This document shows positions 19,195-36,413 of a DNA stretch of 37,288 bases, piece by piece (position 1 is the stretch's first letter; each line of letters opens with the position of its first letter). Under the pieces are notes generated by a model. The model made no database searches and had not been told where the DNA came from. It was given only the letters and a program-made list of their open reading frames with translations. The DNA is taken from NCBI GenBank assembly GCA_045643325.1, contig JAZUKQ010000086.1:1-37288 (forward strand), written 5' to 3'. Both the position numbers and the translations under genes were made by a program. This DNA comes from Kiritimatiellia bacterium (GTDB taxonomy: Bacteria > Verrucomicrobiota > Kiritimatiellia > RFP12 > JAZUKQ01).

Positions 19195-20511
19195 ATGCTT
19201 TCGCGTATGAAAGCGAAGAGCGCCTCGTCCCTTAAATGTAATTTCTTCTGTATCGCGCTGGCCTTGGTTTTTTTCGCGTTTTCCACCGGGACCACGTGGA
19301 CGCCGGGGTGTGATTTCGTATGGCGGCTGAACGAGAGCCGTTGCGTGCTGGCCGGCTACGACCCGTATGCGGTCGCGTTCAATGGTGTCGAGACACCGGA
19401 TTACTGCTCGCTGTTCAATCCGGAGGACGGAAAGCGGCTGGTCAACGGGTACACGCCGTGGACGTACCTGTGGACGATGCCCCTGTCGTTCCTTTCCGAC
19501 GAGTTGGCGAATACGCTGTTTATTTTGATGAATCTGGTGGCGTACGTCGTGCTGATTGTGTTTGCGGCGAAGTATGCGAAAGAGAAAAGTCTCTCCCGGT
19601 TCGACACAATGGGGGTGATGGGGTTCTCGGTGTTTCTTGGGGCCTCGCTTCCAAGGGTGCTGCAGGTCTCGAATTTCGGGTTGCTGATGGCGGCCGCGCT
19701 GACGGGGATGGCATACTGCCTAAACCGGCGGCGGGACGTTCTGGCGGGCGTGCTGTACGCGGTCTTGTGCATTAAGCCGCAAATCGCGCTGCCCTTCCTG
19801 ATACCGTTGCTCTGGCGGCGGCGGTTCCGGACTGTCGCGACGGCGGGGGCGCTGTGTTTCCTCTCGTCGTTGCCTCCGGCCGTCTGGTGCCGCAGGAATC
19901 CGCTTGCGATGATTCTCCATGTCGCGGACTCCGGATCCCGGTCAATCCGGACGTGGAGCCGGAGCACGGCGCTTGTCCCGGCGCCGGTTTTCAAACTATT
20001 GTCAGAATGGATTCCGGAGAACGCGGTGTTGTTGCTTTCGACTCTGACCGCGCTTACGGTCTGCGTTCTGCTGACCCGGCGTCTCCGGAAGGCAGAGGAG
20101 GATGCGTGCGTGTGGCTTGTTCCGGCGGTTTTCGCCGCGCTGAACGGCCCGTACGGGCATCTTCACGACCGAGTGATGCTCTCGCTCCCGTTGGTGGTTC
20201 TTTCGGCGCAGCGGTTCGCCGTCTCCGTTGAAAGGTCCGGCGCGGCGGACTGTTCCTCCTTGGTTTCTCCGTCGCGCCGTTCTCGTCTCCTGACGTGGGG
20301 ACTTGTCCTTTTCGCGGCGGAATTCGTGCTGATGCCGTTTCTTGGAACCGTGTACGTCGACACATCGGAGGCCGCGTTCACCGCGGTGTCCGCCTACGAT
20401 TGGTTTCTTTGTGTCGTGAGCTATCTGCAGATTGTGTTTTTATTCGTGTGGACGCGGATTTGCGGAAGCCAAGCCATTTCAGTGGAAACGGGTCGCGTAG
20501 CGAATGCGTGA
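19195..20511 (+). CDS. Polytopic membrane protein, GT-C fold glycosyltransferase-like (DUF2029/GT87-like), paralog 1
   Basis: This is the portion of ORF 18001..20511 downstream of the RND stop, with the ATG at 19195. It has many TM segments, an N-terminal D-x-x-x-R...GYDPY loop, and a CIKPQIALPFLIPLL motif shared with the 21369..22673 protein. The family assignment is from memory of DUF2029 features. Confidence 0.6.
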   Translation: MLSRMKAKSASSLKCNFFCIALALVFFAFSTGTTWTPGCDFVWRLNESRCVLAGYDPYAVAFNGVETPDYCSLFNPEDGKRLVNGYTPWTYLWTMPLSFLSDELANTLFILMNLVAYVVLIVFAAKYAKEKSLSRFDTMGVMGFSVFLGASLPRVLQVSNFGLLMAAALTGMAYCLNRRRDVLAGVLYAVLCIKPQIALPFLIPLLWRRRFRTVATAGALCFLSSLPPAVWCRRNPLAMILHVADSGSRSIRTWSRSTALVPAPVFKLLSEWIPENAVLLLSTLTALTVCVLLTRRLRKAEEDACVWLVPAVFAALNGPYGHLHDRVMLSLPLVVLSAQRFAVSVERSGAADCSSLVSPSRRSRLLTWGLVLFAAEFVLMPFLGTVYVDTSEAAFTAVSAYDWFLCVVSYLQIVFLFVWTRICGSQAISVETGRVANA

Positions 20512-21383
20512 TGATTCAGGTTAAACTTTCCGGCGGTCTGGGGAACCAGATGTTTCAGTATGCCTTCGCGGCGTATCTCGCGGAGGCGAATGGAGCGGTC
20601 GTCCTGAATGACGCGCGGTATAAGACGCTTCCGAGTCATCATGGGATGGAGCTCAGAAAAGTATTCGACTTGCCGGAGACTTTGCCGATTGTCCACGAGC
20701 GCTGTCGATACGGATATAACGAGGACAGCGTGTTGTTTCGGACGGTCAGGCGTTTGACCGGCGTGGAACTCAGGACGAGGCATGTGTTTTTCGAGCATCC
20801 TGGGAAGTCCGGTCTGGTGTCTCAGAAGCGGATGGATCGTGATATGTATTTTGTGGGATGGTGGCAGGATCTTCGGTACATTTTCCCTGTGGAGGAGAGA
20901 CTGAAACGGGATTTCGTTTTTCGGCCGTTTCCGGACGGGAGGAACCGCGCGTTCGCGGAGGGGGTTTTGGCGAACCGCGAGACGGTCTCGGTGCATGTTC
21001 GCCGGGGCGACTATCTGACTGTCGGCGCGCTGAATCTCGGGGAGAGCGGATATTACCGCAATGCGATGGACGCGGCGAGAATACGCCTTCAGAATCCGCT
21101 TTTCGTGGTGTTTTCGGATGATATCGGCTGGTGCCGTCGCGAGTTCGGAGCGAAATCAGATGTCGTTTTCGCCGACTGGAACCAAGACGGGGACAGTTAT
21201 CTGGACCTGCGGTTAATGAGCCTGTGCCGGCATGCGGTCGTCGCGAACTCGACATTCAGTTGGTGGGCGGCGTTCCTCAATCGGAATCCGAAGAAACTTG
21301 TTTTTTGTCCGGAGCGGTGGAATCGGTCGGGAAGTCTGCGGCTAGCGATGCCGGGATGGTTGGAGACCTCATTGGCGAGATAG
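20511..21383 (+). CDS. Alpha-1,2-fucosyltransferase (CAZy GT11, FutC/WbsJ-like)
   Basis: Internal ATG at 20511 of ORF 20295..21383 (TGATG overlap with the upstream gene). It has the GT11 motifs GGLGNQMFQYAFA, VHVRRGDY and VANSTFSWWAAFL. Confidence 0.88.
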   Translation: MIQVKLSGGLGNQMFQYAFAAYLAEANGAVVLNDARYKTLPSHHGMELRKVFDLPETLPIVHERCRYGYNEDSVLFRTVRRLTGVELRTRHVFFEHPGKSGLVSQKRMDRDMYFVGWWQDLRYIFPVEERLKRDFVFRPFPDGRNRAFAEGVLANRETVSVHVRRGDYLTVGALNLGESGYYRNAMDAARIRLQNPLFVVFSDDIGWCRREFGAKSDVVFADWNQDGDSYLDLRLMSLCRHAVVANSTFSWWAAFLNRNPKKLVFCPERWNRSGSLRLAMPGWLETSLAR

Positions 21384-22673
21384 CTCTTTTTGGGGGAGCG
21401 CTTCCCGACGGATCCAGCACCCGTAGAGCATGCATGGGACAGAAAGAAGGATGATGGTCCGGGGGAGCGTGTCGAGAAACGGCATGAGGCCGGAAAGGTC
21501 GATCGAGACGAAGCGTTTCAGCGGAACAAGCCAACGCGGTTCGCACCGGAGATTGATTGTGGTGAAATAGAAAAGATTGGTCGCGAGCAGACAGGCGGAA
21601 GTGCCGACGGCCGCGATTTTCCCCCGAAACGGAATCGGGCGCAGGGACTCCAGCGCGAGCACAAGCAGAGGAAGCATGAAGACGCACATGTCGTAGGGTC
21701 GTGAGTAGGCCCATGCGGTGCAGAGAATCGCGGGCGGAATCAGCCGGAGGTCCCACCGGGGCTCGGACTTCAGAAATACCGACGCGAGGACGCAGAGCGC
21801 GGTTCCAAGCGCCATTCCCGCGGCGTTGATGGCAGGGAGATCCAGATCTGAGTTCGGATAGAAGAACGAGATGGGATGGAGCAGAAGCGGGGGCTGGAAG
21901 AGCATGGGCGTTCCGGCTTCTTTGATGCAGAGGATGAGGTCTACGGGGGATGTATGGCAAAGGATTGCGGGAGGAATCGTCAGAAGAATGCAGAGCGCCG
22001 CGCCGTATGCGACCGCCCGGAATTCACGGTGCAGAAGGAGCGTGACGGCGAAGAGAAGGCCGATTTGCGGTTTCTGCATCAGGAAAAGCAGGGCGATCCC
22101 GGACAGAAGAGGACGTCTCCGTTCCAATGATTCCAGCAGGGCGATTGCGTAGACGGGAAGGAATGCTCCGAAATTGAGCGACATGATGCTCGCCTTGAAA
22201 GGATAGGTGAAAAAAATGGAGAGAGTCGCGACGGAAAGCGATGTCCAACGGTCTTGGGTTTGGCGGAGGGCGCGACGCCATCCGAACGCGAAGAGAAATA
22301 CGATGGAAAGGACTTGGAGACCGAGGTTGATGTCCCGGGCTGTGGGATAGTCGAGAAGTGTGAATGGAAGGACAAGCGTGTATTCCCAAGGGGTATAGGC
22401 GTGGACGGCGTGGACTTCGTCCCATGGATATTTTTCGCGGTCGATTTCTTTATCCAGCGGCACATAGTCCGGGAGGACGATTTTTTCCGAATAGACATCG
22501 AAGGGATTGATGCCGCGAGAGACGAGGAGCGCCTCATGGTATCGCATAGAGAAGTCCATGGTGGTCCACGACCGGCATCGTTTGATGTCCTTCGCGAACG
22601 AGAAGCACAGTATCGGCAGCGCGACAATCGGGAAGACTCGTACGAGAAACCGACGGATGGTCATGGAGTGCAT
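21369..22673 (-). CDS. Polytopic membrane protein, GT-C fold glycosyltransferase-like (DUF2029/GT87-like), paralog 2
   Basis: 434 aa and TM-rich. It aligns by eye with the 19195..20511 product (DFSMRYHEALLVSRGINPFDV / DFVWRLNESRCVLAGYDPYAV; YTPWEY / YTPWTY; MQKPQIGLLF / IKPQIALPF). Confidence 0.6.
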   Translation of the reverse strand: MHSMTIRRFLVRVFPIVALPILCFSFAKDIKRCRSWTTMDFSMRYHEALLVSRGINPFDVYSEKIVLPDYVPLDKEIDREKYPWDEVHAVHAYTPWEYTLVLPFTLLDYPTARDINLGLQVLSIVFLFAFGWRRALRQTQDRWTSLSVATLSIFFTYPFKASIMSLNFGAFLPVYAIALLESLERRRPLLSGIALLFLMQKPQIGLLFAVTLLLHREFRAVAYGAALCILLTIPPAILCHTSPVDLILCIKEAGTPMLFQPPLLLHPISFFYPNSDLDLPAINAAGMALGTALCVLASVFLKSEPRWDLRLIPPAILCTAWAYSRPYDMCVFMLPLLVLALESLRPIPFRGKIAAVGTSACLLATNLFYFTTINLRCEPRWLVPLKRFVSIDLSGLMPFLDTLPRTIILLSVPCMLYGCWIRREALPQKELSRQ

Positions 22674-22706: not shown

Positions 22707-23798
22707 CTATATCGCGTATTCGAGGAGAAACTGGACTCTTCTGTTCAGTCTTGCCGGAGTGTCGCCGTAATCGGCCAAAAGCGTTTCGACGAGTTGTCGG
22801 GACTTCATAAAATCGGTCGGTACGTGGTCGCAGACGAGTCCCGGACGGTATTCCGCCGAGAGACGCTTCGCGAGAGAGGTCCCGGGGGGGGCGTATCGGG
22901 CTCGGAAGAAGTGGGGAACGTGGGATTGAAGCATCCTGGAAGCCTCATGAAGCGGGACTGTGGAGTGTGGAAGAAGCCATTCGGGCGGACAGGGTTGCGC
23001 CATTTCCGACGCGTCGCGGAGGCGTTGGGCGAGGCGTTTCAATTGAAGCGCCGTCTGGTAGTGACAATGGATCTCTGGACAGTTATCTTTGAGCCAGCCT
23101 TTGATGCCGGGATTTCGTCCGCGGAAGTGGCCGTCCGGGGTGGGAATGGAGCGGTTGTTGACATAGGCTTCAAGGTCGTTGAGGGCCGATCCGAACGCGA
23201 TGGCGTCCTCGGTGGATCCTTTCCTCCGATTCCACAGGGAGAGGAGAGTCTCGGGGGATGGCGGGGGATTGAGGGAGGTCCGGATGACGTGTCTCCAGGG
23301 ATTTGGCTGGACGAGAGCGCGTTTTTGGGAGAGTTCGTACGTTTGGAGGCTTCGGGAGAAGAACGCGTAGGTTTTTACAAGGACGCTGAGCAGAAAAAAG
23401 GAGCCGTTGACGACGAGAAAAAGGGGGAGGAAAAAAAGAATCAAGGCGTAGAACGACTCGGCCCGGTTGTAGCGGTTCACGGAGAGAAGGTCTGCGGAGA
23501 GATCCTGGATGGTTTCCCAGACGATACCGTCGAATAGAAAGAGCGGGGCGTTTTTCCGGATCGGCGAGCTTTCCCGGGTGTTGCGGCGTTTCCGGAGCGT
23601 TGAGCGTTTCCGGCGCGGTGAGCTTTCTCGGGTGTTGCGGCGTTTAGGCGCGTGTTTCGACTTTCGGTCAGAAACATCAGAAACGAAATCTTTCCCGTCA
23701 GCGCGTCTGCCCGTATTCGCATTCCCTGTTGCGCGGGGCCGTCCATTTGTTCGTATGCGATCGTCCGCGCGTCCCATCTGACAAAGTTTCCGTTTCAT
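22707..23798 (-). CDS. Hypothetical membrane-anchored protein (basic repeat N-terminus, one TM region, ~220-aa C-terminal domain of unknown family)
   Basis: The ORF is 22707..23837 (TTG). I prefer the ATG at 23798 because the TTG lies between the predicted -10 and the TSS. The product has the RRNTRESSP duplication and the hydrophobic stretch FYALILFFLPLFLVVNGSFFLLSVLV. I recognise no family motif. It is probably co-transcribed with the GT-C gene 33 nt downstream. Confidence 0.5.
   Translation of the reverse strand: MKRKLCQMGRADDRIRTNGRPRATGNANTGRRADGKDFVSDVSDRKSKHAPKRRNTRESSPRRKRSTLRKRRNTRESSPIRKNAPLFLFDGIVWETIQDLSADLLSVNRYNRAESFYALILFFLPLFLVVNGSFFLLSVLVKTYAFFSRSLQTYELSQKRALVQPNPWRHVIRTSLNPPPSPETLLSLWNRRKGSTEDAIAFGSALNDLEAYVNNRSIPTPDGHFRGRNPGIKGWLKDNCPEIHCHYQTALQLKRLAQRLRDASEMAQPCPPEWLLPHSTVPLHEASRMLQSHVPHFFRARYAPPGTSLAKRLSAEYRPGLVCDHVPTDFMKSRQLVETLLADYGDTPARLNRRVQFLLEYAI
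23563..23650. repeat. In-frame 54-nt-period tandem duplication inside the hypothetical gene
   Basis: The 29-nt cores 23563-23591 and 23617-23645 differ at 2 positions. They encode KRRNTRESSP twice, 18 codons apart. Confidence 0.85.
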
Positions 23799-23825
23799 TT
23801 CGCTTTTTCTCCAAATGTCGGCATC

Positions 23826-23854
23826 ATCATATTTCAAATCAGAAAAATTGTCAA
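23826..23854 (-). promoter_or_regulatory. Sigma70-like promoter (minus strand) for the hypothetical gene and GT-C paralog 2
   Basis: On the minus strand: TTGACA (23854-23849), a 17-nt spacer, then TATGAT (23831-23826). It sits in an AT-rich island and abuts the left arm of the 15-bp inverted repeat. Confidence 0.5.
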
Positions 23855-23965
23855 TAACCGAAATTTATGCATTTTTAAATTAGAGATTATCAAATTCAAA
23901 ATTTATATTCGAGATATAAAACAAAAAAATAATATAATGAAAGAAAATTACATAAATTTCGGTTA
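23855..23965. repeat. Perfect 15-bp inverted repeat TAACCGAAATTTATG ... CATAAATTTCGGTTA separated by 81 nt of very AT-rich DNA
   Basis: The arms are 23855-23869 and 23951-23965, exact reverse complements read directly. Confidence 0.9.
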
Positions 23966-24458
23966 GAAATAGCGGTTTCAGTGAATTGTGGATAGCTCAT
24001 GCGTTCAATCTCGGCCGTTCAGGTTGTCCATGACCAGTGTCGCCGGGCCAGCCACTTCCGCGCCCACCTCCCTGCGAACGACTTGAAGAGGTTCATAGGT
24101 CCTCGCGCCGTGGTATGTCATGAGCATGAGATCGCTCTGTTTTCCGATGGCGGAGACCATGCAGCGGCGGACGGATCGGTTCCCTGTGGTCCGACATACC
24201 GACGGATGCCCGTGCAGGAGGATGCCTTGTCGCGCCGCAGGAGTTGATACCGACAACACCTGACGGGTGCCCGCGCAGGAGGACGCCCCTCGTCCGCATG
24301 GCACCAACCAGTACGGTGTCCACGTTCTCCAACGTTTCTTCCTCCTCCACACATCGCAAGCAGGGCGGTCGAGTCGGCACGTATCAAGCGCGAGAACGCA
24401 GGTCTCCCCCCGCGCAAGCAGGGCGGCGTATGTGATTCGTGTTTTCGCAGAGAGGGAA

Positions 24459-24488
24459 TTGCCTGTAGATAGGATGAAATGCTACAAT
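24459..24488 (+). promoter_or_regulatory. Candidate sigma70-like promoter for the plus-strand glycosyltransferase block
   Basis: TTGCCT (24459-24464), an 18-nt spacer, then TACAAT (24483-24488). This would give a ~250-nt leader before the ATG at 24744. Confidence 0.3.
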
Positions 24489-24743
24489 CCCCCCGCAAGA
24501 AAAAGAGCAAATAAATTTTCGCGCCGCCGCTTTCCACATACACCTTCAGTCATGTACATGTCTCGTCCGGACCGGTTGTCATCTCCATTGCCTTCCGCTG
24601 TGTCATCATGATGCCCGCACGCCTCCAATTGTGCCGGAGAAACGCCGCTCCTTTTCGACACGCGCCGCCGCGGTATTCCCCTCCGCGGTTTCTGCCGGAC
24701 CGTCGCATTCGGCACGAAACGACGCAGAACGGACACGAATCCC

Positions 24744-26084
24744 ATGAAATTCCTTTTTCCAACTCCGGTCGTTTTTGACGGCGACGTATCCCGGTTTCTT
24801 CAGCGGGACGGAGCCCGTTTCGCCCGGTATCTCGCGTCGGAGGGCCATGAGGCCCGGAAAATCATTCTTTCAGAAAACCTGCGGGGAGGCAGGGGCGCGG
24901 AGGCTCCGAGGGGCTGCGAAACTTTCGATTCGGGAAGCGCCGGGCGCGGACCGGTATTCGAGCCAAGGGGCAGAGCGAACCCTACCCGAGCGGAACTTTC
25001 TGTCCGCGCCCCGATGTTTATCCCGTCCGCACCGGATCAACTCCTCGAAGTTTCCACTCCGGCCGACTGGCGAAATCCTGACTATTGGAGGGCGCAGGAG
25101 GCGGACGGTGTGTTGCTCTACGGCGGAATCAATCCTCTGCTGGAGCCGGTCGCACTGGCCGTCCGCGAGGCGGGAATTCCTCTGGTTCTGAAACTGGATA
25201 TGTCCGCCGGCATCGTGCGGTTCCCGAAAGACGTCTCTCGGCAGTTCGTCACTGGATACTTCCGGGCACGAGAGTCGAATGGTCCCGTCAGGGCCTTTCT
25301 GCTTTCGGTCTGGCGGCAGATTTCCAGACTGCGTCCGTCCCGGATACGCTTTCTTGAGCGCTACCTCCCGCTGTTCGACACGGTGACCTGTGAAAACGAA
25401 TTCGCGTTGCGGAACACGAGGGAGTGGGCGTCCGTCCATCTTCCGGATCCGACGGCTCCCCGGATCGATCTGCTGGAACATCCGGTCCCCGATGAATTCA
25501 TGTTCTCCTCCGGCGCCAAGAAGTCTCCGCAAGTTCTCGCGGCCGCTCTCGACTGGTCCAATCCGAGAAAGGGCGGCTGCCTTCTCGCATCGGTCCTTGC
25601 CCGGGCGCTTCCCGCCCGCCCGGCGTATTCCGCCGTGGTGGTCGGAGACGGGTCTCAGGCCGTCAAAGCGCGGGCGGAGAAGGAGGCGGGCCGCGATCTT
25701 CCCATCCGTGCCGTGCCTCGGCAAAGCGGAGACGGTATGGCCGGCCTGTACCGGTCGTCCGAAATCTTCCTTCTTCCTTCCGGATCCGAAGGAAATCCGA
25801 ATGTCGCGTTCGAGGCGCTCTGTTCCGGGTGCTCGCTTGTGTTCCCGGCGACGCTAGCCGGACTCCGCCCCGTCGTGGAATCCCGCGCCGGAATCGCGGC
25901 GTCCGCAAGGAACGTCCAAAAAATGACGGAGGCGTTGGAAGCGGAGATTTCCGGTTGGGAATCCGGCCGTCGGTCGCCGGAGCGGATCTCCTCGGAATAT
26001 TCAAAGGCGTTCCATGTCTCCGAGCTTTCGGAACGCCTGCTCACGATGTTCGAGACTTCCCGGAAGCATGCGGTTCGTTCATGA
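24744..26084 (+). CDS. GT-B fold glycosyltransferase (GT4-like), paralog A with a ~55-aa low-complexity insert
   Basis: 446 aa. The C-terminal IFLLPSGSEGNPNVAFEALCSGCSLV is an E-x7-E type motif. The N-terminus MKFLFPTPVVFDGDVSRFLQRDGARFA parallels that of the 26925..28103 product. Confidence 0.65.
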   Translation: MKFLFPTPVVFDGDVSRFLQRDGARFARYLASEGHEARKIILSENLRGGRGAEAPRGCETFDSGSAGRGPVFEPRGRANPTRAELSVRAPMFIPSAPDQLLEVSTPADWRNPDYWRAQEADGVLLYGGINPLLEPVALAVREAGIPLVLKLDMSAGIVRFPKDVSRQFVTGYFRARESNGPVRAFLLSVWRQISRLRPSRIRFLERYLPLFDTVTCENEFALRNTREWASVHLPDPTAPRIDLLEHPVPDEFMFSSGAKKSPQVLAAALDWSNPRKGGCLLASVLARALPARPAYSAVVVGDGSQAVKARAEKEAGRDLPIRAVPRQSGDGMAGLYRSSEIFLLPSGSEGNPNVAFEALCSGCSLVFPATLAGLRPVVESRAGIAASARNVQKMTEALEAEISGWESGRRSPERISSEYSKAFHVSELSERLLTMFETSRKHAVRS

Positions 26085-26221
26085 GTTTCCCCGGAAGGCC
26101 GCTTCGTTGGCGGATTCTGGCGCGGAACCCCGTTTTTTTGATATACTGAAAACACATCGGTTCCGGGAGACCCCGCTCACCATGTCTCCCGGAGTGTTCG
26201 TCCAAACCCTGTCTTTTTTTT

Positions 26222-26911
26222 ATGTCGGAACTCAGCGCCCCAAGCTCTTCCAAGCGGCCAAGCATCCAGACCGGTTCTGCCGGGACTGGAAAGACGCCGC
26301 TTGTGGTCGTGGGGAAGGTGCTGAAGGTCGCGCGGATCCGTCTCGACACGTTTTTCAGTACGCTCCGGATGCGGTTTTGGCTCCGCATGAACGGCGTTCA
26401 TGTCGGGCGGAGGTTGCGGGCAATCGGTTTCTCCTTGCGGGACGTCCGCATCCAGGTTTCCATCGGCGGACGCGCCTCGATCGGCGATTCCGCGTATATC
26501 CGGACCGGAGTCTGGTGCACGGAGGTCGGTCGTTCCGGGACACGCATTCTGGTCGGAAAGCGCGGGACACTATCCGTCGGAAACCGGGTTTGGATGTCGA
26601 ATCCTTCGATTGTCGCCCACGAGCGCGTGACCATCGGCGACGATACGTTCCTTGGAGGCGGCGTGCAGATTTTCGACACGAATTTCCATTCGACCGATCC
26701 CGTTGTCCGAGCATCCCGAAAAGAGACGCCCGGCACAGTGCGCGTCGCGCCGGTGACAATCGGCAGGCGGGTCTTCATCGGGGTCGACGCGATTGTGTGC
26801 AAAGGAGTGACCATCGGCGACGAGGCGATGGTCGCGGCGGGTTCCGTCGTCGTGGACGATGTGCCTCCGGGCGAGGTTTGGGGAGGAAATCCGGCGAGGC
26901 GTTTGAGATGA
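26222..26911 (+). CDS. Hexapeptide-repeat (left-handed beta-helix) O-acetyltransferase, WbbJ/maltose-acetyltransferase-like
   Basis: 229 aa. ...VTIGDDTFLGGGVQIFDTNFH...VTIGRRVFIGVDAIVCKGVTIGDEAMVAAGSVVVDDVPPGEVWGGNPAR is the typical LbH C-terminus. The start is uncertain because a T8 run abuts the ATG, there is no SD, and a downstream GTG is possible. Confidence 0.8.
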   Translation: MSELSAPSSSKRPSIQTGSAGTGKTPLVVVGKVLKVARIRLDTFFSTLRMRFWLRMNGVHVGRRLRAIGFSLRDVRIQVSIGGRASIGDSAYIRTGVWCTEVGRSGTRILVGKRGTLSVGNRVWMSNPSIVAHERVTIGDDTFLGGGVQIFDTNFHSTDPVVRASRKETPGTVRVAPVTIGRRVFIGVDAIVCKGVTIGDEAMVAAGSVVVDDVPPGEVWGGNPARRLR

Positions 26912-28103: not shown

Positions 28104-28942
28104 AGATTCCCGCATTGGTCATCAACTTGAAGTCCTCGACGGAACGCCGGGAGCGGATGGTGCGTCTGCTCACCCCGTTCGCGGACATTCTGGACGTCCG
28201 GTTTGTCGAGGGAATCGACGGGCGGCGTCTCTCCGAGGAGGAGAAACGGGCCGCCTTGAGTCGGGGAAGTCGGCGGAAGTGGGAGCGGAAGTTGGCTTGG
28301 TGCGACGGTGAAATCGGTTGCGCGCTGAGCCACCGAAAGTGTTTTCAGACGATCGTCGACGACCGGCTGGACTACGCGCTGATTCTGGAGGACGACCTGG
28401 AGTTCTCCGACGAGAAGGGGCTCCGCGTCCAGTTGGAACTTGCGAAACGGTTTTTTGAATCAAGGGAGGAGGCTGCCGCGCTCGATTTGTCTTTCCGCTA
28501 TGCTATGCTTCCGAAGACACTTCTCCGTTCGGATGACGGCCGGTTCGAGGTCCATCCGATGACGGGCGGCATATCCGCCGTCGCCTACTTCCTGAATCAG
28601 CGGGCCGCGGAGGAAATGATCCGGAGGAACACGCCGCTCCGGCATGTGCTGGACGACTGGATTGAGAATGTACGGAGCGGGCTCCCGTGCTTCGTCGTCC
28701 ATCCGTCCGTGTTCGTCGCGGAGCATCCGAAAAAACGGACGGACAGCATCATCCAAAAAACCCGGGGACCCATGTGGGACGCGATGGCGAAGAAAGAGAC
28801 TAATCACAGATTCTGTACGAGTATTTCCCGAATTCTGACGTGTAAATGGTGGTTCCAGAAATACAACCGGGTGTTTCGTGGGGCGGTGACGGTGGACCCA
28901 TTCTTCACAAAGGACAACAGGACGGATCGAAGCCATGGATAG
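28100..28942 (+). CDS. Glycosyltransferase family 25 (LgtB/Lic2B-like LOS/LPS beta-glycosyltransferase)
   Basis: 280 aa, MKIPALVINLKSSTERRERM...FVEGIDGRRL...GEIGCALSHRKCF...YALILEDDLEF is the GT25 pattern. There is an ATGA overlap with the upstream gene. Confidence 0.8.
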   Translation: MKIPALVINLKSSTERRERMVRLLTPFADILDVRFVEGIDGRRLSEEEKRAALSRGSRRKWERKLAWCDGEIGCALSHRKCFQTIVDDRLDYALILEDDLEFSDEKGLRVQLELAKRFFESREEAAALDLSFRYAMLPKTLLRSDDGRFEVHPMTGGISAVAYFLNQRAAEEMIRRNTPLRHVLDDWIENVRSGLPCFVVHPSVFVAEHPKKRTDSIIQKTRGPMWDAMAKKETNHRFCTSISRILTCKWWFQKYNRVFRGAVTVDPFFTKDNRTDRSHG

Positions 28943-29927
28943 TGGAAAAACCAGAGCGGAAAGACCGACCGTTTCGGTCGTTGTTCCGGTGTATAACGTG
29001 GAACCGTATCTCGCGCGGTGCGTCGACTCGCTGCTCGCGCAGACATACCGAGACTTCGAGATCCTGCTGGTCGACGATGGATCGACGGACGGGAGCGGCG
29101 CACTCTGCGACGCGTATGCGGCGCGGGATCCGCGCGTCCGGGCGCTTCACAAGGAGAACGGGGGGCTTTCCTCCGCCCGGAATTTCGGAATCGAGAACGC
29201 CCGAGGGGAGTTTCTCTGCCTTTTCGACGGCGACGACGCGTTCGCTCCGGAGACGCTTGAGGTCCTGCACGGCAATCTCGTCGGACATGACGCCGACATG
29301 TCCTGCTGCGCGTTCCAATATCTTCCCGATGGAAAGACGCCGTCCGCGCCGGATGTGAAGCGCGCGAATGTCTCCGTACTCACCCGGAACGAGGCGTCCA
29401 AAGACATCCTCACCGCGAGCCGGGTCGAGGTGAGCGCGGCCAACAAGCTCTATCGGCGCGCCGTGTTCGATACCGTCCGGTTTCCTGTCGGACGGCTCTA
29501 TGAGGACGCGTTCGTCATCGCGGACACGGTCGCGCGGTGCCGGAAGGTCGTTGTGACGGACGCGGGACTGTATTTCTATTATCAGAGAACCGGGAGCATC
29601 ACGAGAAGCCGATTCACGGAGCGCAATCTGGACTTGGTCGCGGCGCACGAATACAAGTACGGACGGATTCTCGAGGAATGTCCCGCGCTACGGTCCGACG
29701 CGTTCGAGGCGCTTCTCCGCGCGCACTACATGACGCTCGACCGGATGCTCGCGAGCGGCTACCGGGAGACCGGATTCCGCGAGAGCGTCGCCTTTCTCCA
29801 GAGGCACACGCTTTTCGCGTTGACGCGGCGGCGTCTGCACAAGAAACGGCGCGCGGCGCTTCTCGGACTGTGGTTCGGGGTGGGGGAGTACGACCGCCTC
29901 CGGAGAAAGTTCCGGCTGCACTGCTGA
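28935..29927 (+). CDS. Glycosyltransferase family 2
   Basis: 330 aa, VSVVVPVYNVEPYLARCVDSLLAQTYRDFEILLVDDGSTDGS...ENGGLSSARNFGI...FDGDD is the GT2 (GT-A, DxD) pattern. There is an 8-nt overlap with the GT25 gene. Confidence 0.88.
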   Translation: MDSGKTRAERPTVSVVVPVYNVEPYLARCVDSLLAQTYRDFEILLVDDGSTDGSGALCDAYAARDPRVRALHKENGGLSSARNFGIENARGEFLCLFDGDDAFAPETLEVLHGNLVGHDADMSCCAFQYLPDGKTPSAPDVKRANVSVLTRNEASKDILTASRVEVSAANKLYRRAVFDTVRFPVGRLYEDAFVIADTVARCRKVVVTDAGLYFYYQRTGSITRSRFTERNLDLVAAHEYKYGRILEECPALRSDAFEALLRAHYMTLDRMLASGYRETGFRESVAFLQRHTLFALTRRRLHKKRRAALLGLWFGVGEYDRLRRKFRLHC

Positions 29928-29940: not shown

Positions 29941-31020
29941 ATGCCGAGCCCGCCGGCCGTTCCCGTAATCACGCTTGTCGTGCCTGCGTTCAACGCGGAG
30001 GCGTTCCTTCCGACACTGGTGGAGTCCGCGCTTGCCCAGACGTTTTCGGAATGGCGGATGATTCTGGTGGACGACGGAAGTGCCGACGGCACCGCCGCGC
30101 GTTGCGACGACTTCGCCCGGATGGATCCGAGAATACACGTCATCCACAAGGAGAACGGAGGGGCGTCCTCCGCCCGCAACGCGGGGCTCGGTGCGTGCGA
30201 TACGGAACTCGTCTGTTTTGTGGACGCCGACGACCGACTGGAGCCGGACTACCTGCGTCGGTTCGTCGACACGTACAGGAAGACCGGATCCGATGTCGTG
30301 TTCCAAGGTTTCCGGATTGTCGGGCAGGAGATTCGGACCGTGGAATTCGGGGAACGGACCTTTTCAAAGGAGGAGACGCTTGATTTTCTGGACTATGTCC
30401 ATGCCTGCAATGGATGGGCCATCGGGCTTTCATGGAACAAATGCTATCGGACGGACGCGCTGCGGAATCCGGTTTTCCCGGAGGCCGCGAAAAAGACACC
30501 ATGCTCCGGACCGGACCGCGGCGAGCGGTGGGATCCTGAGATTTCCGTGCAGGAGGATGTCGAATTTTTCCTGAGGGTACTCTCTCGGTGCGCGCGAAGC
30601 GTCTCGTTCGCTCCCGGAATCGGGTACGAATATTTTTTGCGGCCTGGTTCGGCAAGTCATCGACGGAATTTCGAGGAGCAGTTCGGCGCCGCCTACAAAC
30701 GGTACCGCGCGTGGCTGGAGGTTCTCGCCCCGTTTCAGGACACGGAGCAGACCGCGCGTTTCCGGACGTGGTGGATGAAGGCGCATGTCCACTTCATTTT
30801 CGAGGTCACGCAGTCCATCTGCAAGCTGCGGCGGCCGTTTCTCTGGAAACGGGCGGAGTCCGCGCGCCTGTTGGAAACCTGCGGCGCGTATCTCCGGGAG
30901 GTCCGTCTCGGGGAGTTGGAGCGGCCGAAATTCCGCGCGCTTGTCGCGTTGATGAAACTCCGGTCGTCGATGCTGCTTTCGGCGTTTCTCGCGGCGCTCG
31001 GGCGGCTCCGGCGGAAATAG
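29941..31020 (+). CDS. Glycosyltransferase family 2
   Basis: 359 aa, ITLVVPAFNAEAFLPTLVESALAQTFSEWRMILVDDGSADGT...ENGGASSARNAGL...VDADD. Confidence 0.88.
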   Translation: MPSPPAVPVITLVVPAFNAEAFLPTLVESALAQTFSEWRMILVDDGSADGTAARCDDFARMDPRIHVIHKENGGASSARNAGLGACDTELVCFVDADDRLEPDYLRRFVDTYRKTGSDVVFQGFRIVGQEIRTVEFGERTFSKEETLDFLDYVHACNGWAIGLSWNKCYRTDALRNPVFPEAAKKTPCSGPDRGERWDPEISVQEDVEFFLRVLSRCARSVSFAPGIGYEYFLRPGSASHRRNFEEQFGAAYKRYRAWLEVLAPFQDTEQTARFRTWWMKAHVHFIFEVTQSICKLRRPFLWKRAESARLLETCGAYLREVRLGELERPKFRALVALMKLRSSMLLSAFLAALGRLRRK

Positions 31021-31092: not shown

Positions 31093-32091
31093 CTACTCTT
31101 TCGTTCCGGTGATTTTCCGTTTGATTTTCCGCGCGATTTCAAGCCAGCGTGGCGGCTTGTGGATGCGGTTGTCCACCAAGTGCCGATAGGGGGAGTAGGC
31201 CATGCAGTCCTTGTCGAAAACTCGGCCGCGCTCGACGATGTGCCGCAGAAACCTTTCCAGACTGTCCTCGCGGAGGAGATCGCAGTCCGGCGCGAGGACG
31301 GGGGCGCGGAGCATGGCGAGATAGGCGTCGTTGTCCCGGTCGAGTTCCTTGATCCGCGCCGCCAGCGCGTCCAGTGTCGGAAAGTCGTGCGCGTTCACGA
31401 ACGCGGCGGGGTTGATGGCATTGGCCGCGCCGTAGTCGCCCCAGTAGATGGGGACGGAGCCGGCCATCAGGGGATGCCACATCTTCTCCGTCATGTAGCC
31501 GTCGACCGAGGCGTTCTCAAAGGCGATGGTGAACTTGTACTTGCCGAGCCATGCGATTTTCCCCGCGCGCCAGTCCGTGTTGCCCCGAGGGGCGAACTCC
31601 GGGTCGTCGAGGTTGTGGAGGACGCGCCCGGGGCAGTCCACTTTTTTGTATTTCGCCAGGATTTTGCAGAACTCCTTGCGGAGCCGCGCTCCGTGGATGG
31701 CGTTGTCGTTCGAGTAGACGAAGTTACAGAAACGGCGGCCGGCCAAGGTGTCGGGGAGCTCCCGCCGGATTTCGTCAAGACGCCCGAACCCGGAGAGGTC
31801 GGGTTGCCAGAGGTCGTACCGGAGGTATCGCTCGCCGACGGACAGGCGCGCGTAGCCGATGGCGTAGTCGCAGAGGTTGAAGTCGGGAATGTCCGACTCG
31901 CCGGTGCAGTAGATCCGGACGGTGTGCCCGTTGTCCGGCGGAACGGGTCCGAAACAACTGTAGAAGAGAAAATCCGGATGTTTCGAGAGAGTCACGTCAA
32001 ACGAATCGGATAGCGCCCGGTGGATCGGGTTGTCGTTTTTGTCGAAATCTCTTGAGAAATTGACAAAGTTGATGCGGATGTTTTTTTTCAT
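31093..32091 (-). CDS. Alpha-1,3(/4)-fucosyltransferase (CAZy GT10, FutA-like)
   Basis: 332 aa. ...KYKFTIAFENASVDGYMTEKMWHPLMAGSVPIYWGD...FVNAHDF matches the conserved GT10 FxxxFENxxxxxYxTEK...P(I/V)YxG motif of bacterial and eukaryotic alpha-1,3-FucTs. Confidence 0.88.
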   Translation of the reverse strand: MKKNIRINFVNFSRDFDKNDNPIHRALSDSFDVTLSKHPDFLFYSCFGPVPPDNGHTVRIYCTGESDIPDFNLCDYAIGYARLSVGERYLRYDLWQPDLSGFGRLDEIRRELPDTLAGRRFCNFVYSNDNAIHGARLRKEFCKILAKYKKVDCPGRVLHNLDDPEFAPRGNTDWRAGKIAWLGKYKFTIAFENASVDGYMTEKMWHPLMAGSVPIYWGDYGAANAINPAAFVNAHDFPTLDALAARIKELDRDNDAYLAMLRAPVLAPDCDLLREDSLERFLRHIVERGRVFDKDCMAYSPYRHLVDNRIHKPPRWLEIARKIKRKITGTKE

Positions 32092-32149: not shown

Positions 32150-33739
32150 TCAATGTGTTTTTTTATGGATGACCTTTTTTACGGTCGCGACGAGATATTT
32201 CCGCTCGGATTTCCCGACGACAAGCCACGTGAGGGAGGCGACGAGCGCCGCGTTTATGGGAAACGCCGCGAGAAGGACCGGCCAATAGGCGCCGAACGCC
32301 GTTCGATAGGCGAATACGGTCAGAAAACAGGCTGAGAACACGGCTGTCATCGGCGCGAGGATGCGGGAAAAGAACTCGGCCGCAGAGATTTTGAGGTTTT
32401 TCTGAACGAGGAAGACACGCCAGTTCGTCATGAAAATCCAAGGAAGGACGGAGCCGGCGAATATCGCGAGCGGGATAGACCTGGAGAAATAGTACAGGGT
32501 GGAGAACAGAAGCAGACGCACAAGGTTCCCCGTGCCGAACACGATGGAGTAGCGTTTGATCCGCCCCCGGGCGACGAGAAGGAGAAAATAGCCGGTGGAG
32601 ACTTTTTCGGAAAGTTGGCAGACAATGGTCGCCGTGATGAAGGTCGACATGTAGGGCGGCGGAACGTCCAGCCAAAGGGTGAGAATCGGCTGCGCGTAGA
32701 CCAGAACGGGAATCGCGATCATCATCTCGAGCATGGTCGTATAGGTGCAGACCCGTTTGGCGACGGCGACCGCTCCGGAAACATCGCCCGCGCCCATGCG
32801 CGTGTTGATCTCCGGGGCGACGGTCGTGTTGGTGGCGTCCGCGAACATCGAGATTTTGCTTGTGATGCGCGCGCTGTTCCCGGCGCTCGAGTTGATGGCG
32901 GGACCGTCCAGTTGGTTGAAAAGGATTTTCCGGACCGAACTGAAGACGGAGAAGCTCATTGTCTCGAAGAAATACCATCCGGAGAACGAGAAGAGCTTCC
33001 GCATCTTTTCTTTGTCCCACCAGTACTTGAACCGGACCCGCATCTCCGGAAACTGGAAGTGCCCGATGAGGTAGTAGGTGGCGGAGACGGACATGTTGAT
33101 GCCCGTCAAGATGATCGCGTGCGTGATAAAACGGTCCCCCGAATAATGGAGCAGCCACCAGGATTCCCCGAACATGAGAAGGGACTCCGCGATGTGCATC
33201 ATGTTTTTGATGAAGATGTACTGCTTGGCCACATAGAGGGACTGGACCGGCGTGAGCACCTGCCCGTACAGCATGCTGAACAAGGAGAGCAGGAAAACGA
33301 TCCAGCACGCGGAATGACGTCCGTCGGGAATCTTCAGGAAATGGAAGACTCCGAAATATCCGACAGGGAGAAGGATGACGAAAAACACGAGTGCCAACGC
33401 AAAGTAGGTGCTTACGGCGACGTTGAACCATCTGCAGAGGAGGTCGTTTTCCGCGTGGCCTACTTTTTCTTCGCCGATGGCATAGGCGAAAAATCTCGCG
33501 CAGGCGGAGCGCAACGTCGAGGAGATGATTCCGACGAGGACGAAGAGCGTGCCGACGACGGAGAACAGGCCCTGTTGGTCGGCACCGAGCGCCTTGTAGA
33601 TCCAACGGGTGGTCCACAGCCCGAAAACGACGGACGCGGCGGTCTGCGCGTAGGTGGCGAGAATATTGACGGAGATGCGGCGGGCGGACATGTCGTTCGA
33701 GGGCGGGGTTATGAAAGACGGGCACCCCGGACGCTCCAT
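32150..33739 (-). CDS. wzx: Wzx-type oligosaccharide flippase (MOP/polysaccharide biosynthesis protein family)
   Basis: 529 aa and very hydrophobic, with ~12-14 TM segments. N-terminus ...ISVNILATYAQTAASVVFGLWTTRWIYKALGADQQGLFSVVG is typical of PST/Wzx. An alternative ATG at 33691 would avoid the overlap with the upstream gene. The same-strand ORF 32163..33725 in another frame is rejected. Confidence 0.75.
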   Translation of the reverse strand: MERPGCPSFITPPSNDMSARRISVNILATYAQTAASVVFGLWTTRWIYKALGADQQGLFSVVGTLFVLVGIISSTLRSACARFFAYAIGEEKVGHAENDLLCRWFNVAVSTYFALALVFFVILLPVGYFGVFHFLKIPDGRHSACWIVFLLSLFSMLYGQVLTPVQSLYVAKQYIFIKNMMHIAESLLMFGESWWLLHYSGDRFITHAIILTGINMSVSATYYLIGHFQFPEMRVRFKYWWDKEKMRKLFSFSGWYFFETMSFSVFSSVRKILFNQLDGPAINSSAGNSARITSKISMFADATNTTVAPEINTRMGAGDVSGAVAVAKRVCTYTTMLEMMIAIPVLVYAQPILTLWLDVPPPYMSTFITATIVCQLSEKVSTGYFLLLVARGRIKRYSIVFGTGNLVRLLLFSTLYYFSRSIPLAIFAGSVLPWIFMTNWRVFLVQKNLKISAAEFFSRILAPMTAVFSACFLTVFAYRTAFGAYWPVLLAAFPINAALVASLTWLVVGKSERKYLVATVKKVIHKKTH

Positions 33740-34926
33740 TCGGAAAGTATCCGGCCGTAAAGAGCCTTATGGCTGTCCGCGACGGAGGCGGGGCTCATAT
33801 AGGCGCGTATCCGCCGCCGCGCGCCTTCGATCTCTTCCGTCTCCCCGTTTTCGTCCATCTTCCGTAAAACCGCGATCACCGCGTCGGCGAGCGCCTCCGG
33901 ATCTTTTTGCGGGACGACGGTGGCGTTGCCGAAGCGGCGGGCGTTTTCGGCGAGCGCGGTGTATTCCGTCACGATGCCGTGACAGCCGCGCATCAGCCCC
34001 TCAATCAGTTGGTTTCCGAACATTTCCTCCGTGGAGGGCGCGAGGAGAATCCGGCATCCGTCCAGAATCGAGAACAGATCCGTCGACTTCTTTTTCCCTT
34101 CCAGGACGAGCCGTTCGCCGAGTGTCCCGCCGAGACGCGCGAGCACTTTGCCCGAGTAGGTCTTCTGGAAGTTCTGGAGTTCCGCGATCCGCGCTGGCGG
34201 AAGTTTTTTGGCTCCGACGACGTGAAGCCGCACATCCGGGAACGCGGCAACGATTTTCGGCATCGCCTCCGCGATCAGATGAACGCCTTTCCGCTCGTCC
34301 ACAGTCCCGACGAAGACGAGGTCATGCCCGGTCTTCGGTGTGAGGGGCGTGTCGAGTTCCGGCTGGTAGGTGTTGGGGATGGAGGTGATGTCGAGATGCG
34401 GATACTTTTCCGCGAGCGCGGCGCGAACGTATTCGCTTTTGGCGACGGCATAGTGGGTCCGTGTCCAAGCCTTGTGCTCCGCGAGTTGGAGAAAGCGCTC
34501 GTTCAGGTGGAGTCCCGGGGAGAGTGTCGGGAGAATCTGGAAGAAGAGCCCTTGGGCCGTCACGCAGAACGGACATCCGGTTCGGACGGCGGCGAGCGCG
34601 TAGGCCGCCTCTGTTCCGTGGGCGTGGACGATGTCCGGGCGGAGTCCGAGGACATACTTCGCCATGCGTCGACTGTCGAGGGCGTAGAGAGAAAGATGTC
34701 GATAGGGGTGGTAGGTCCGGAGAAAATGGACCTTTATCCCTTCGATCTCGCAGACGAAGTCTTTGGAGGCGCCGTGCGCCTGCGTGACCACTTCGACATC
34801 CATGCCCGCGTTTTTTTGGGCGAGTGCGTGATTCAAGACCCAACGGCCCGGATGAATCCGTCTCATACGGTCTCGCTCCGGATGGCCGGAGGGAACCGGA
34901 ACATGTCCCAAGTGAATGATTTTCAC
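33709..34926 (-). CDS. Glycosyltransferase family 4 (GT-B)
   Basis: 405 aa, MKIIHLGHV...DIVHAHGTEAAYA...LLAPSTEEMFGNQLIEGLMRGCHGIVT (E-x7-E). The start is GTG, overlapping the upstream stop as GTGA. Confidence 0.85.
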   Translation of the reverse strand: MKIIHLGHVPVPSGHPERDRMRRIHPGRWVLNHALAQKNAGMDVEVVTQAHGASKDFVCEIEGIKVHFLRTYHPYRHLSLYALDSRRMAKYVLGLRPDIVHAHGTEAAYALAAVRTGCPFCVTAQGLFFQILPTLSPGLHLNERFLQLAEHKAWTRTHYAVAKSEYVRAALAEKYPHLDITSIPNTYQPELDTPLTPKTGHDLVFVGTVDERKGVHLIAEAMPKIVAAFPDVRLHVVGAKKLPPARIAELQNFQKTYSGKVLARLGGTLGERLVLEGKKKSTDLFSILDGCRILLAPSTEEMFGNQLIEGLMRGCHGIVTEYTALAENARRFGNATVVPQKDPEALADAVIAVLRKMDENGETEEIEGARRRIRAYMSPASVADSHKALYGRILSEWSVRGARLS

Positions 34927-36413
34927 ATCAGTTGATTCCTGCGGGCGGCCAGTTCGTCTTCAAACCCGTTCGAGATGGAGTGGAGAAGGCCGATCATCGG
35001 GCAGGCCCCCAGCGGCACGAGGGCGGAGTGTCCGGACTGGAGTGAAAAGAGAAGCTGTGTCAAAAGGTCGGCCGCATAGTACAGCACGCAGGCCTGAAGA
35101 TAGGGAATCCCGCTAATCGTTCCAGTTCGTTTGGCGAGTTTGACGGCGATGACCGCCGAAAACCCGATGAAGAAGAACCAGAATACCGCGGCCGGGACAC
35201 CGAAATCTGCGACGAAGGCCCACCATGTGCTGTGCCAGTTCCCGGAATAGGTATGGAGTTCGAAGTTCGTCCCCCTTTTTTTTGTCGCGGCGATCCAAGC
35301 GGCCTCGCGGAGGTCCATCGCATAGCCTTTCCGCCCGAACCATGGGTTTTCGCGCATGATGAGCTTGGCGCGACGGTGGATTTCCTCGCGGAACAGGTCT
35401 CTTGTGCCCATGGCGTTTGACGTCTCATACTTCGGAACAACGATGCTCAGCCCGCGGCGGACGGAACGCGGCAGCCGGTAGAATGTGCCGTCGCCGATAA
35501 CGAGAAGTGCGAGCATGAACGCGCCGATAACGGCGGCGACGCCGAGGACTCCTTTGTCGCGGCCGGTCAATGCGACGCGGAAAATCGGAGCCAGCGCGAG
35601 TCGCGCGACACCTTGCCGTTTGCCGGTGTAGAGGACCAAACCCGCCAGAAGAACCGCCGTGAGAAATTTCCATCCCGAGGTGAGAAACTGATGCAGTTCA
35701 TACCGGCAGATCAGGAGGATGTACACGGTCAACGCGCCCAGCAACTCGTAGTGCTGCGAGGCGACCACCTCTTCTTCGTCTCCGCCTCCCGCGCCGATGT
35801 GCAGGAGCGTGAAGACAAGGTTGACCACGGACGCTGAAAGAATCAGGAGGAAGATTTTTTTACATTCTTTCTCTCGAAACCGGAACGAGGAGAGCGCGAG
35901 CATGGCTACAAAGGCCACCAGTTGGTCGATATAGAACCGGCCTCCGACGTAGGTTGATCCAAGTTTCGCGATTCCGGGCGGTTTTTGGATGAAGACGATG
36001 AAAATCCATGTGAAGACCGGAAGCGAGGCGAGGAGGCCGGGTTTCCACTTGAAGGAGGTCTCTCCGCTCCGGAGCGTGCTTCGGACGACCCACATGGCCG
36101 TCACCGCGATACATGCGAGTTCGTTCGCCCGGGCGGGAATGCCGGGGATTCTCAATCCAAACGAGGTGAGCAGCGGATAGAGCATCCAGTAGTTTTTGTC
36201 GAGCGCGAGGACAATCGCCACCGCGACGAAAATCGCGGCGATCATCTTAAAGTTGGTGATGCCTCCTCTGCCACGCATCATGCCCTTGGTGACCATGTAG
36301 CCCAAGCCGACGAGTGCTCCGCCAAAAATCACCTGGTAGACCTTGGTTGTGTTGGAAAGAGGGGATGGCATGTGAAACAGCGTTTTTGCTAGGATTCCCG
36401 TCGATGCGGGCAA
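34923..36413 (-). CDS. O-antigen polymerase/ligase family membrane protein (Wzy_C-like)
   Basis: 496 aa with ~10-12 TM segments and a periplasmic-loop motif ...ELHTYSGNWHSTWWAFVADFGVPA, resembling the H-x-x-x-N/H...G Wzy_C signature. The called start is TTG at 36413, and an ATG at 36371 is an alternative. Confidence 0.7.
   Translation of the reverse strand: MPASTGILAKTLFHMPSPLSNTTKVYQVIFGGALVGLGYMVTKGMMRGRGGITNFKMIAAIFVAVAIVLALDKNYWMLYPLLTSFGLRIPGIPARANELACIAVTAMWVVRSTLRSGETSFKWKPGLLASLPVFTWIFIVFIQKPPGIAKLGSTYVGGRFYIDQLVAFVAMLALSSFRFREKECKKIFLLILSASVVNLVFTLLHIGAGGGDEEEVVASQHYELLGALTVYILLICRYELHQFLTSGWKFLTAVLLAGLVLYTGKRQGVARLALAPIFRVALTGRDKGVLGVAAVIGAFMLALLVIGDGTFYRLPRSVRRGLSIVVPKYETSNAMGTRDLFREEIHRRAKLIMRENPWFGRKGYAMDLREAAWIAATKKRGTNFELHTYSGNWHSTWWAFVADFGVPAAVFWFFFIGFSAVIAVKLAKRTGTISGIPYLQACVLYYAADLLTQLLFSLQSGHSALVPLGACPMIGLLHSISNGFEDELAARRNQLM

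Follow-up and report, generated by a model that had tools for sequence, protein, structure and literature searches.

The 37,288-nt contig JAZUKQ010000086.1 of an uncultured bacterium of the Kiritimatiellae, within the Planctomycetes-Verrucomicrobia-Chlamydiae (PVC) group, was analysed in full and is referred to here as the window. Between positions 19195 and 36413 it carries a glycan locus in which genes of three glycosyltransferase (GT) families, GT10, GT11 and GT25, occur together. The region is probably a composite surface-glycan locus of the Wzx/Wzy type and specific to its lineage. This reading draws on the family or fold membership of the encoded components, the conservation of catalytic residues in the GT10 enzyme, the gene order and the likely operon structure. 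Three features of the locus are unusual: the presence of all three families, a pair of GT87 genes around the GT11 gene, and a MOP-superfamily flippase too divergent for Pfam to recognise.

In the proposed pathway, a GT4 enzyme, two GT2 enzymes, the GT25 enzyme and two GT-B paralogues would assemble a branched oligosaccharide in the cytoplasm, with undecaprenyl diphosphate as its lipid anchor, and the GT10 and GT11 enzymes would add fucose from GDP-fucose. Since both of the latter use this donor, the glycan should carry fucose. A hexapeptide transferase may add an acyl group, the 14-helix MOP flippase would carry the lipid-linked unit across the inner membrane, and a Wzy_C-domain protein would polymerise or ligate the flipped unit. 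Two GT87-type GT-C enzymes may attach periplasmic sugars or branches from polyprenyl-phosphate donors. We infer that these parts act on one glycan, and likewise the order of the steps, all linkages and acceptors, and whether the final carrier is O-antigen, capsule or exopolysaccharide.

Enzyme families of the locus

An initial annotation of the window had assigned the three focal genes to GT11, GT10 and GT25 and had placed them within 12 kb of each other. All three family calls held, with Pfam scores above the curated cut-offs, the motifs quoted for GT11 and GT10 were found in the respective genes, and together the three genes cover 11.6 kb.

The GT10 protein contained both the FucT_N domain (PF18025, E = 1.3e-22, 80.5 bits, cut-off 27.2) and the C-terminal Glyco_transf_10 domain (PF00852, E = 1.7e-19, 70.6 bits, cut-off 23.9). 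Its best relative in the PDB was the alpha1,3-fucosyltransferase of Helicobacter pylori (2nzw, E = 2.7e-25), to which it aligned at low identity in just two local segments, the alignment stopping near H. pylori residue 309. Residues E95, N240, Y246, E249 and K250 of the H. pylori enzyme map to E65, N193, Y199, E202 and K203 in the window protein. Among 33 homologues E65, N193, E202 and K203 were invariant and Y199 was at least 90% conserved. In the H. pylori enzyme Glu95 is the catalytic base, and a role has also been described for Glu249 (PMC4202792). The window protein carries the motif FxxxFENxxxxxYxTEK, with FTIAFENASVDGYMTEK at residue 187 and PIYWG at residue 214. The heptad repeats, the C-terminal acceptor determinant and the two amphipathic helices of the H. 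pylori enzyme were absent from it, and a short basic tail runs to residue 332; the repeats and the C-terminal determinant are marks of the H. pylori subtype and do not define the GT10 family as a whole. The protein formed a singleton cluster, and no relative was more than 48% identical.

An A8 tract occupies codons 2-4 of the GT10 gene, right after the start (ATGAAAAAAAAT), and reads as T8 at 32081-32088 on the plus strand. Further 8-nt A/T runs lie at 26214-26221 and 35276-35283. A first-order Markov model predicts 0.67 A/T runs of at least 8 nt, against the three observed in the locus, and 16 of 500 simulations reached three. By analogy with the H. pylori fut genes, the A8 tract is a weak candidate for a slipped-strand phase-variation site.

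The GT11 protein matched PF01531 (E = 2.9e-32, 112.6 bits, cut-off 23.9) over profile positions 123-268 of 298. It displayed GGLGNQMFQYA at residue 8, HVRRGD at 162-167 and NSTFSWWAA at 246, the second of these being the local form of the GT11 donor motif HxRRxD (PMC4202792). A sequence search of the PDB gave no match, and the protein was at most 33% identical to anything found. The characterised members of this family include the T-antigen-specific WbwK and WbiQ, the lactose-preferring WbsJ and the alpha1,3-fucosyltransferase Hh0072 (PMC4202792); acceptor and linkage thus vary among GT11 members, and the family does not fix specificity.

On either side of the GT11 gene lie two genes that had been left unnamed in the initial annotation and that encode the paralogues GT87a and GT87b (28% identical). 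Both matched PF09594 (cut-off 25), GT87a with E = 1.1e-14 and 55.2 bits and GT87b with E = 3.2e-11 and 43.9 bits; each had six to seven strongly hydrophobic segments, and GT87a at least seven hydrophobic ones. The GT87a protein agreed exactly with the NCBI gene call and had no match in a PDB sequence search. The GT87 family is best known from mycobacterial mannosyltransferases that depend on polyprenyl-phosphate-mannose. The hypothetical membrane protein encoded next to GT87b had no Pfam or NCBIfam match, and its translation probably begins downstream of 23837. Its basic N-terminus (KRRNTRESSP...) derives from a 54-nt tandem direct repeat (82% identity, 23541-23645), and a C8 tract is present on its coding strand at 22884-22891.

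The GT25 protein matched PF01755 (E = 1.5e-23, 84.2 bits, cut-off 24), and both its EDD triad (E97, D98, D99) and GEIGCALSH at residue 70 were invariant among the aligned relatives. Its PDB relatives were mimivirus R655 and human procollagen galactosyltransferase 1 (E about 1e-9). The GT25 family covers several specificities, including beta-galactosyl and beta-glucosyl transferases with varied acceptors. Two uncharacterised relatives apart, of which the closest was 85% identical, nothing found exceeded 36% identity; the contigs of the closest relatives were 2-5 kb long. The 85% relative (84.6% at the DNA level, against window positions 28049-28902) lies on the 2.1-kb contig k141_341691 of ENA ERZ27234663 (L080). 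Upstream of it is a second GT25 gene (41% identical) where the window has GT-B2. Homology between this contig and the window sets in only over the final ~50 nt of GT-B2, a pattern resembling a recombination breakpoint where two genes meet. The different gene context of GT25 in this relative is consistent with a mosaic surface-polysaccharide locus.

For the remaining transferases, the initial annotation had named two GT2 enzymes, one GT4 enzyme and two unusual GT-B enzymes, and Pfam bore this out. GT-B1 (PF13692, 3.8e-10; PF00534, 4.2e-07; residues 272-405 only) and GT-B2 (PF13692, 9.4e-10; PF00534, 2.8e-08) are paralogues, 37% identical over their full length. The N-terminal half that they share (MK[FI]LFPTPV...DG..RY/FLQRDGARFA) was not recognised by Pfam, only the C-terminal GT1/GT4 half being detected, and GT-B2 had a single, insignificant match in the PDB (E = 0.048). 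In the GT4 enzyme both GT-B halves were recognised. GT2a had its best PDB match in 5hea, "Putative glycosyltransferase (GalT1)" (7.7e-42). The protein previously termed an O-acetyltransferase is a hexapeptide acyltransferase (PF14602, 5.6e-12; PF00132, 3.2e-11). O-acetylation of the glycan is plausible, but the NCBIfam models for the O-acetyltransferases Maa (maltose), WbbJ and WcaF and for the N-acetyltransferase group NeuD/PglB/VioB scored alike, all below their cut-offs.

The protein called Wzx in the initial annotation, whose ORF reaches from 32150 to 33739 on the minus strand and is called by NCBI as 32150-33691, had no direct Pfam or NCBIfam match, and its assignment comes from its homologues (E = 1e-31 to 1e-24), which carry PF01554 (MatE) or PF01943 (Polysacc_synt), and from its predicted fold. 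Sequence and profile searches against the PDB gave no matches, so that fold comparison alone was informative. The AlphaFold2 model (pLDDT 86.5, pTM 0.82) was compared by Foldseek with MurJ (TM-score 0.72-0.78, over all 14 helices), with MATE transporters (0.6-0.7) and with WzxE (0.55-0.59 by query length, 0.66-0.70 by target length). As judged from homologues and model, the protein is a divergent MOP-superfamily flippase, an assignment that holds at the level of superfamily and fold. A housekeeping MurJ was considered and rejected: PF03023 was not detected, the homologues belong to MatE/Polysacc_synt, and the gene sits within the glycan operon.

The neighbouring protein, earlier described as Wzy/ligase-like, does contain a Wzy_C domain (PF04932, 5.5e-08, 33.2 bits, cut-off 31.7) and at least six strongly hydrophobic segments. 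It matched the NCBIfam repeat-unit polymerase model with E = 0.018; no PDB match was obtained by sequence and no PglL-specific domain was detected. Going by its domain content, candidate roles for the protein are polymerisation of O-units, ligation in the manner of WaaL and O-oligosaccharyl transfer in the manner of PglL.

Occurrence of GT10, GT11 and GT25 in other loci

Among GTDB representative genomes (185,579 species), 508 stretches encoded a relative of the GT10 protein, which indicates a GT10 subfamily with a wide distribution and horizontal mobility. The best 78 of these were compared with the window by scanning up to 10 kb on each side with profile hidden Markov models. A second set consisted of the 80 metagenome loci with the most similar GT25, seeded by an alignment of eight sequences. 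Many loci of both sets end at contig ends. Neither the 78 GT10 loci nor the 80 GT25 loci included a case in which all three families were present. On the GT10 side, 14 of the 78 loci had a GT11 gene, for the most part right beside GT10 in Gastranaerophilales, and one (L054) had a GT25 gene. On the GT25 side, where relatives were at most 36% identical over the GT25 domain apart from a few short partial matches of up to 43%, GT11 was found in 4 of the 80 loci and GT10 in none. The three-family locus is thus uncommon among the sampled loci, and the GT10-GT11 pair is a recurrent module.

The 78 GT10 loci came mostly from metagenome-assembled genomes (MAGs) with titles pointing to animal gut, rumen or faeces. 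Their hosts were Gastranaerophilales, Alphaproteobacteria, Desulfovibrionaceae, Clostridia, Akkermansia, Puniceicoccales, Muribaculaceae and Elusimicrobiaceae. In the modules of Gastranaerophilales (Melainabacteria) and other gut MAGs (for example L001, L004, L032 and L038), the GT10 was 42-45% and the adjoining GT11 28-33% identical to those of the window. The order GT10-then-GT11 was also seen in L003, L011, L016, L017, L019, L033, L034 and others. These gut pairs belong to low-GC hosts of another phylum and have no GT25 within 10 kb, whereas in the window 10 kb separates the GT10 gene from the GT11 gene, and the two belong to different operons on opposite strands. Judging from their gene content, the uncultured gut bacteria with a GT10-GT11 module may make difucosylated glycans. 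A literature search combining Kiritimatiellae and fucosyltransferase found no papers.

Gene order and genomic setting

Tight or overlapping gene junctions, together with promoter-like sites at 23854 (-), 24459 (+) and 36455 (-), suggest four transcription units in the locus (Table 1). The GT11, GT10 and GT25 genes fall into three separate units, with GT11 in a module of its own. A non-coding gap with promoter-like sites on both strands and no convincing open reading frame (ORF) parts the GT87/GT11 module, which ends with unit ii, from unit iii. Within this gap a 22-nt inverted repeat (23855-23876 / 23944-23965, 91% complementary, 67 nt between the arms) overlaps the best promoter-like sites of both strands and may, because of this overlap, be a putative regulator binding site.

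Table 1. Features of the window, in order of position, with the predicted transcription units of the glycan locus.
Feature	Position	Strand	Remarks
Ribosomal-protein operon	1-12400		S12 to L15
Elongation factor G (EF-G)	1331-3451
MarR regulator	12856-13362
TolC-like / MFP / RND efflux system	13510-19168
Glycan locus	19195-36413		17 kb; beside ribosomal-protein operon and RND efflux system
GT87a, GT87-family GT-C membrane glycosyltransferase	19195-20511	+	438 aa; 27 nt past RND pump gene
GT11 fucosyltransferase	20511-21383	+	290 aa; start overlaps GT87a stop
GT87b, second GT87-family GT-C glycosyltransferase	21369-22673	-	434 aa; convergent with GT11 gene
Hypothetical membrane protein	22707-23837	-	promoter-like site 23854->23826 scores 11/12
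Divergent non-coding control region	23838-24743		~0.9 kb; GC 0.53; AT-rich core 23840-23980
GT-B1, GT-B glycosyltransferase 1	24744-26084	+	446 aa; GT4-like C-terminal half
Hexapeptide (left-handed beta-helix) sugar acyl/acetyltransferase	26222-26911	+
GT-B2, GT-B glycosyltransferase 2	26925-28103	+	392 aa
GT25 glycosyltransferase	28100-28942	+	280 aa
GT2a, soluble GT-A	28935-29927	+	PF00535 6.6e-40
GT2b	29941-31020	+	PF00535 1e-34
GT10 alpha1,3/4-fucosyltransferase-family enzyme	31093-32091	-	332 aa; last gene of minus-strand operon
MOP-superfamily lipid-linked-oligosaccharide flippase (Wzx-like)	32150-33691	-	513 aa (NCBI call); 14-helix
GT4 glycosyltransferase	33709-34926	-	PF13692 4.9e-19, PF00534 1e-16, PF13439 1.6e-14
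Wzy_C-domain polytopic membrane protein	34923-36413	-	promoter-like site 36455->36426 just upstream
Non-coding DNA	36414-37288		~875 nt; GC 0.54; no convincing ORF
Transcription unit i		+	(RND pump)-GT87a-GT11
Transcription unit ii		-	hypothetical-GT87b; from promoter-like site at 23854
Transcription unit iii		+	GT-B1-acyltransferase-GT-B2-GT25-GT2a-GT2b
Transcription unit iv		-	Wzy_C-GT4-MOP flippase-GT10; from promoter-like site at 36455

The organism had been described initially as a high-GC bacterium other than Helicobacter, in agreement with a Kiritimatiellae MAG of which the window has 61.6% GC. EF-G was at most 83% identical to any protein in a collection of 5.8 billion, and all its named matches were MAGs of Kiritimatiellae/Kiritimatiellia. 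The nine window proteins that were looked up, EF-G and L3 among them, were singleton clusters at 90% identity. The contig with the closest EF-G (83%; k141_293960 of ENA ERZ27247223, L079) has an S12-to-L15 operon syntenic with window positions 1-12400. After rplO it carries a GH9 cellulase gene (CelD_N + Glyco_hydro_9) and not the MarR/RND/glycan region, and the glycan locus is lineage-specific. In neither of the two contigs does secY follow rplO.

GC at third codon positions was 0.68-0.83 in the glycan genes and 0.82-0.88 in the core genes, which fits a variable surface-polysaccharide locus, where lower values are usual. The large ORFs of the window outside the glycan genes could all be assigned to the ribosomal operon, MarR or the TolC/MFP/RND system. 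Scans of the window with Rfam and for tRNA gave no matches. A G12 run at 19-30, near the contig end opposite to the glycan locus, may be an assembly-edge artefact.

Candidate products and known systems

The Wzx/Wzy-dependent route, already put forward in the initial annotation, is compatible with the flippase and the Wzy_C protein, but several observations weigh against it. The Wzy_C score barely clears its threshold and fits polymerase, ligase and O-oligosaccharyltransferase alike. No priming phosphoglycosyl transferase of the WbaP/WecA type, Wzz/PCP, OPX or ABC transporter was found among the window ORFs, which leaves the pathway type incomplete. Nor did Pfam/NCBIfam assignment of the ORFs reveal gmd, fcl or fkp within the 37-kb contig, as the initial annotation had also noted for GDP-fucose synthesis. 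Genes for the priming transferase, for any chain-length/export proteins and for GDP-fucose synthesis would have to lie in another part of the genome. The locus encodes ten glycosyltransferases, which exceeds the need of a typical single repeat unit, and with GT11 in a separate module more than one glycan may be made. As the focal genes occupy three transcription units, with GT11 behind the ~0.9-kb gap, their co-operation on one glycan is an assumption.

Some of these observations would also suit general protein O-glycosylation or the decoration of lipooligosaccharide (LOS) in place of a polymerised polysaccharide. A single flipped, fucosylated oligosaccharide would then be transferred by the Wzy_C protein, working as a PglL-type O-oligosaccharyltransferase or a WaaL ligase. 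The Wzy_C domain is common to Wzy, WaaL and PglL-type enzymes and the match is marginal, the window is devoid of Wzz/PCP and export genes, and so many glycosyltransferases would suit one long, non-repeating oligosaccharide. Fucosylated protein O-glycans made from flippase-containing loci are known in Bacteroidetes, which also counts for this alternative. We nevertheless consider it very improbable, as the Wzy_C protein shows no PglL-specific domain and a literature search found nothing on protein glycosylation in Kiritimatiellae. The organisation of the genes also invites the view that two or more independent glycan modules lie side by side and that the three families do not co-operate. One module (GT87a-GT11/GT87b-hypothetical) would then fucosylate or mannosylate one substrate, and the other (GT-B1 to GT2b plus Wzy_C-GT4-MOP-GT10) would make a separate Wzx/Wzy polysaccharide with a single fucose added by GT10. 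The lower GC of the gap and its divergent promoter-like sites, the start of GT87a 27 nt past the RND pump gene, the large number of glycosyltransferases and the mosaic behaviour of the locus are in favour of such a division, as is the lack of a counterpart to either GT87 paralogue among the 78 GT10 loci. Glycan genes that lie together, however, usually serve one product, a second pathway would find no flippase or transporter of its own, and the pairing of GT10 with GT11 in 14 of the 78 loci suggests that the two often work together. We therefore regard two modules as possible but unlikely, and the single composite locus of the Wzx/Wzy type as the probable arrangement.

The initial annotation had further proposed a Lewis-Y/H-like, host-mimicking product. 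Here GT25 would act as a beta1,4-galactosyltransferase, one GT2 as the candidate beta1,3-N-acetylglucosaminyltransferase, GT10 as an alpha1,3-fucosyltransferase on GlcNAc and GT11 as an alpha1,2-fucosyltransferase on galactose, giving a doubly fucosylated epitope based on N-acetyllactosamine (LacNAc). The locus does hold the full three-family set of H. pylori with intact catalytic motifs, a combination that is rare in comparable loci (0/78 and 0/80). The two GT2 genes right after GT25 recall lgtA/lgtB of Neisseria, and the A8 tract in codons 2-4 of GT10 recalls the phase-variable fut genes. Moreover, the nearest GT10 relatives are mostly from animal-gut, rumen and faecal MAGs, a setting where host mimicry makes sense. 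All of this is evidence at the family level, however, and nothing specific to a Lewis-Y/H-like product came to light. GT25 includes glucosyltransferases and enzymes with acceptors other than LacNAc, and the GT25 of the window is at most 36% identical to all but its two uncharacterised relatives. The three focal genes are in separate transcription units, and the GT10 protein has no counterpart to the heptad-repeat and C-terminal acceptor-determining region of H. pylori. GT11 enzymes do not all use one acceptor or even form one linkage (PMC4202792), and the assembly route is unlike the Wzk/WaaL route of H. pylori (PMC12342981). A Lewis-Y/H-type epitope is on balance a rather improbable product, and the terminal epitope, Lewis/H-like or other, is beyond what the sequence can tell.

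More doubtful still is the bolder form of the proposal, in which a probably gut-associated member of the Kiritimatiellae would make a Lewis-Y/H mimic from one compact Wzx/Wzy-type locus, as an invention of the PVC group independent of Helicobacter, and in which the A8 tract at the GT10 start might make the mimic phase-variable. If true, blood-group mimicry would extend from a gastric pathogen to a little-known commensal of the PVC group, and a compact, clustered gene set for fucosylated LacNAc structures would be at hand. As a probable surface-glycan locus of the Wzx/Wzy type, the region is a further fucosyltransferase-bearing surface-polysaccharide locus from a poorly known, uncultured lineage. 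Its kind is already known. The GT10 subfamily concerned is found widely among gut MAGs from many phyla, where pairs of GT10 and GT11 are recurrent. Its practical value lies in the divergent enzymes that it offers to screens of specificity; identity to the relatives found reached at most 48% for GT10, 33% for GT11 and 85% for GT25.

Besides the GT10-GT11 modules of gut MAGs, three known systems resemble the locus in part. The lgt loci for LOS in Neisseria and Haemophilus, with LgtA (GT2) and LgtB/LgtE (GT25), likewise have GT25 beside GT2, and the likeness lies in the families and their adjacency. The lgtA/lgtB pair of Neisseria builds lacto-N-neotetraose, a LacNAc-containing host mimic, and the lgt loci of both genera are flippase-independent LOS core extensions without fucosyltransferases. 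The O-antigen clusters of Escherichia coli O86, O127 and O128 share with the window the clustering of glycosyltransferase genes that include a GT11. These clusters are Wzx/Wzy-dependent and are not known to have a GT10 or GT87-type GT-C enzymes. Their GT11 enzymes (WbwK, WbiQ and WbsJ) carry the HxRRxD motif and make blood-group-like epitopes (PMC4202792). As the acceptors of the E. coli enzymes are of the T-antigen or lactose type, membership of GT11 does not imply LacNAc.

The Lewis machinery of H. pylori, comprising the beta1,4-galactosyltransferase HP0826, HP1105, FutA/FutB and FutC, has the GT25, GT10 and GT11 families in common with the window. Besides the three families it requires HP1105, which is a beta1,3-GlcNAc transferase, as well as WecA, Wzk and WaaL, and its genes are scattered (PMC12342981). 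No polymerase is involved: the ABC-type, PglK-like Wzk flips the O-chain and WaaL ligates it (PMC12342981). By comparison, the locus in the window has no ABC transporter, and its clustered genes encode instead a MOP/MurJ-like flippase and a Wzy_C protein.

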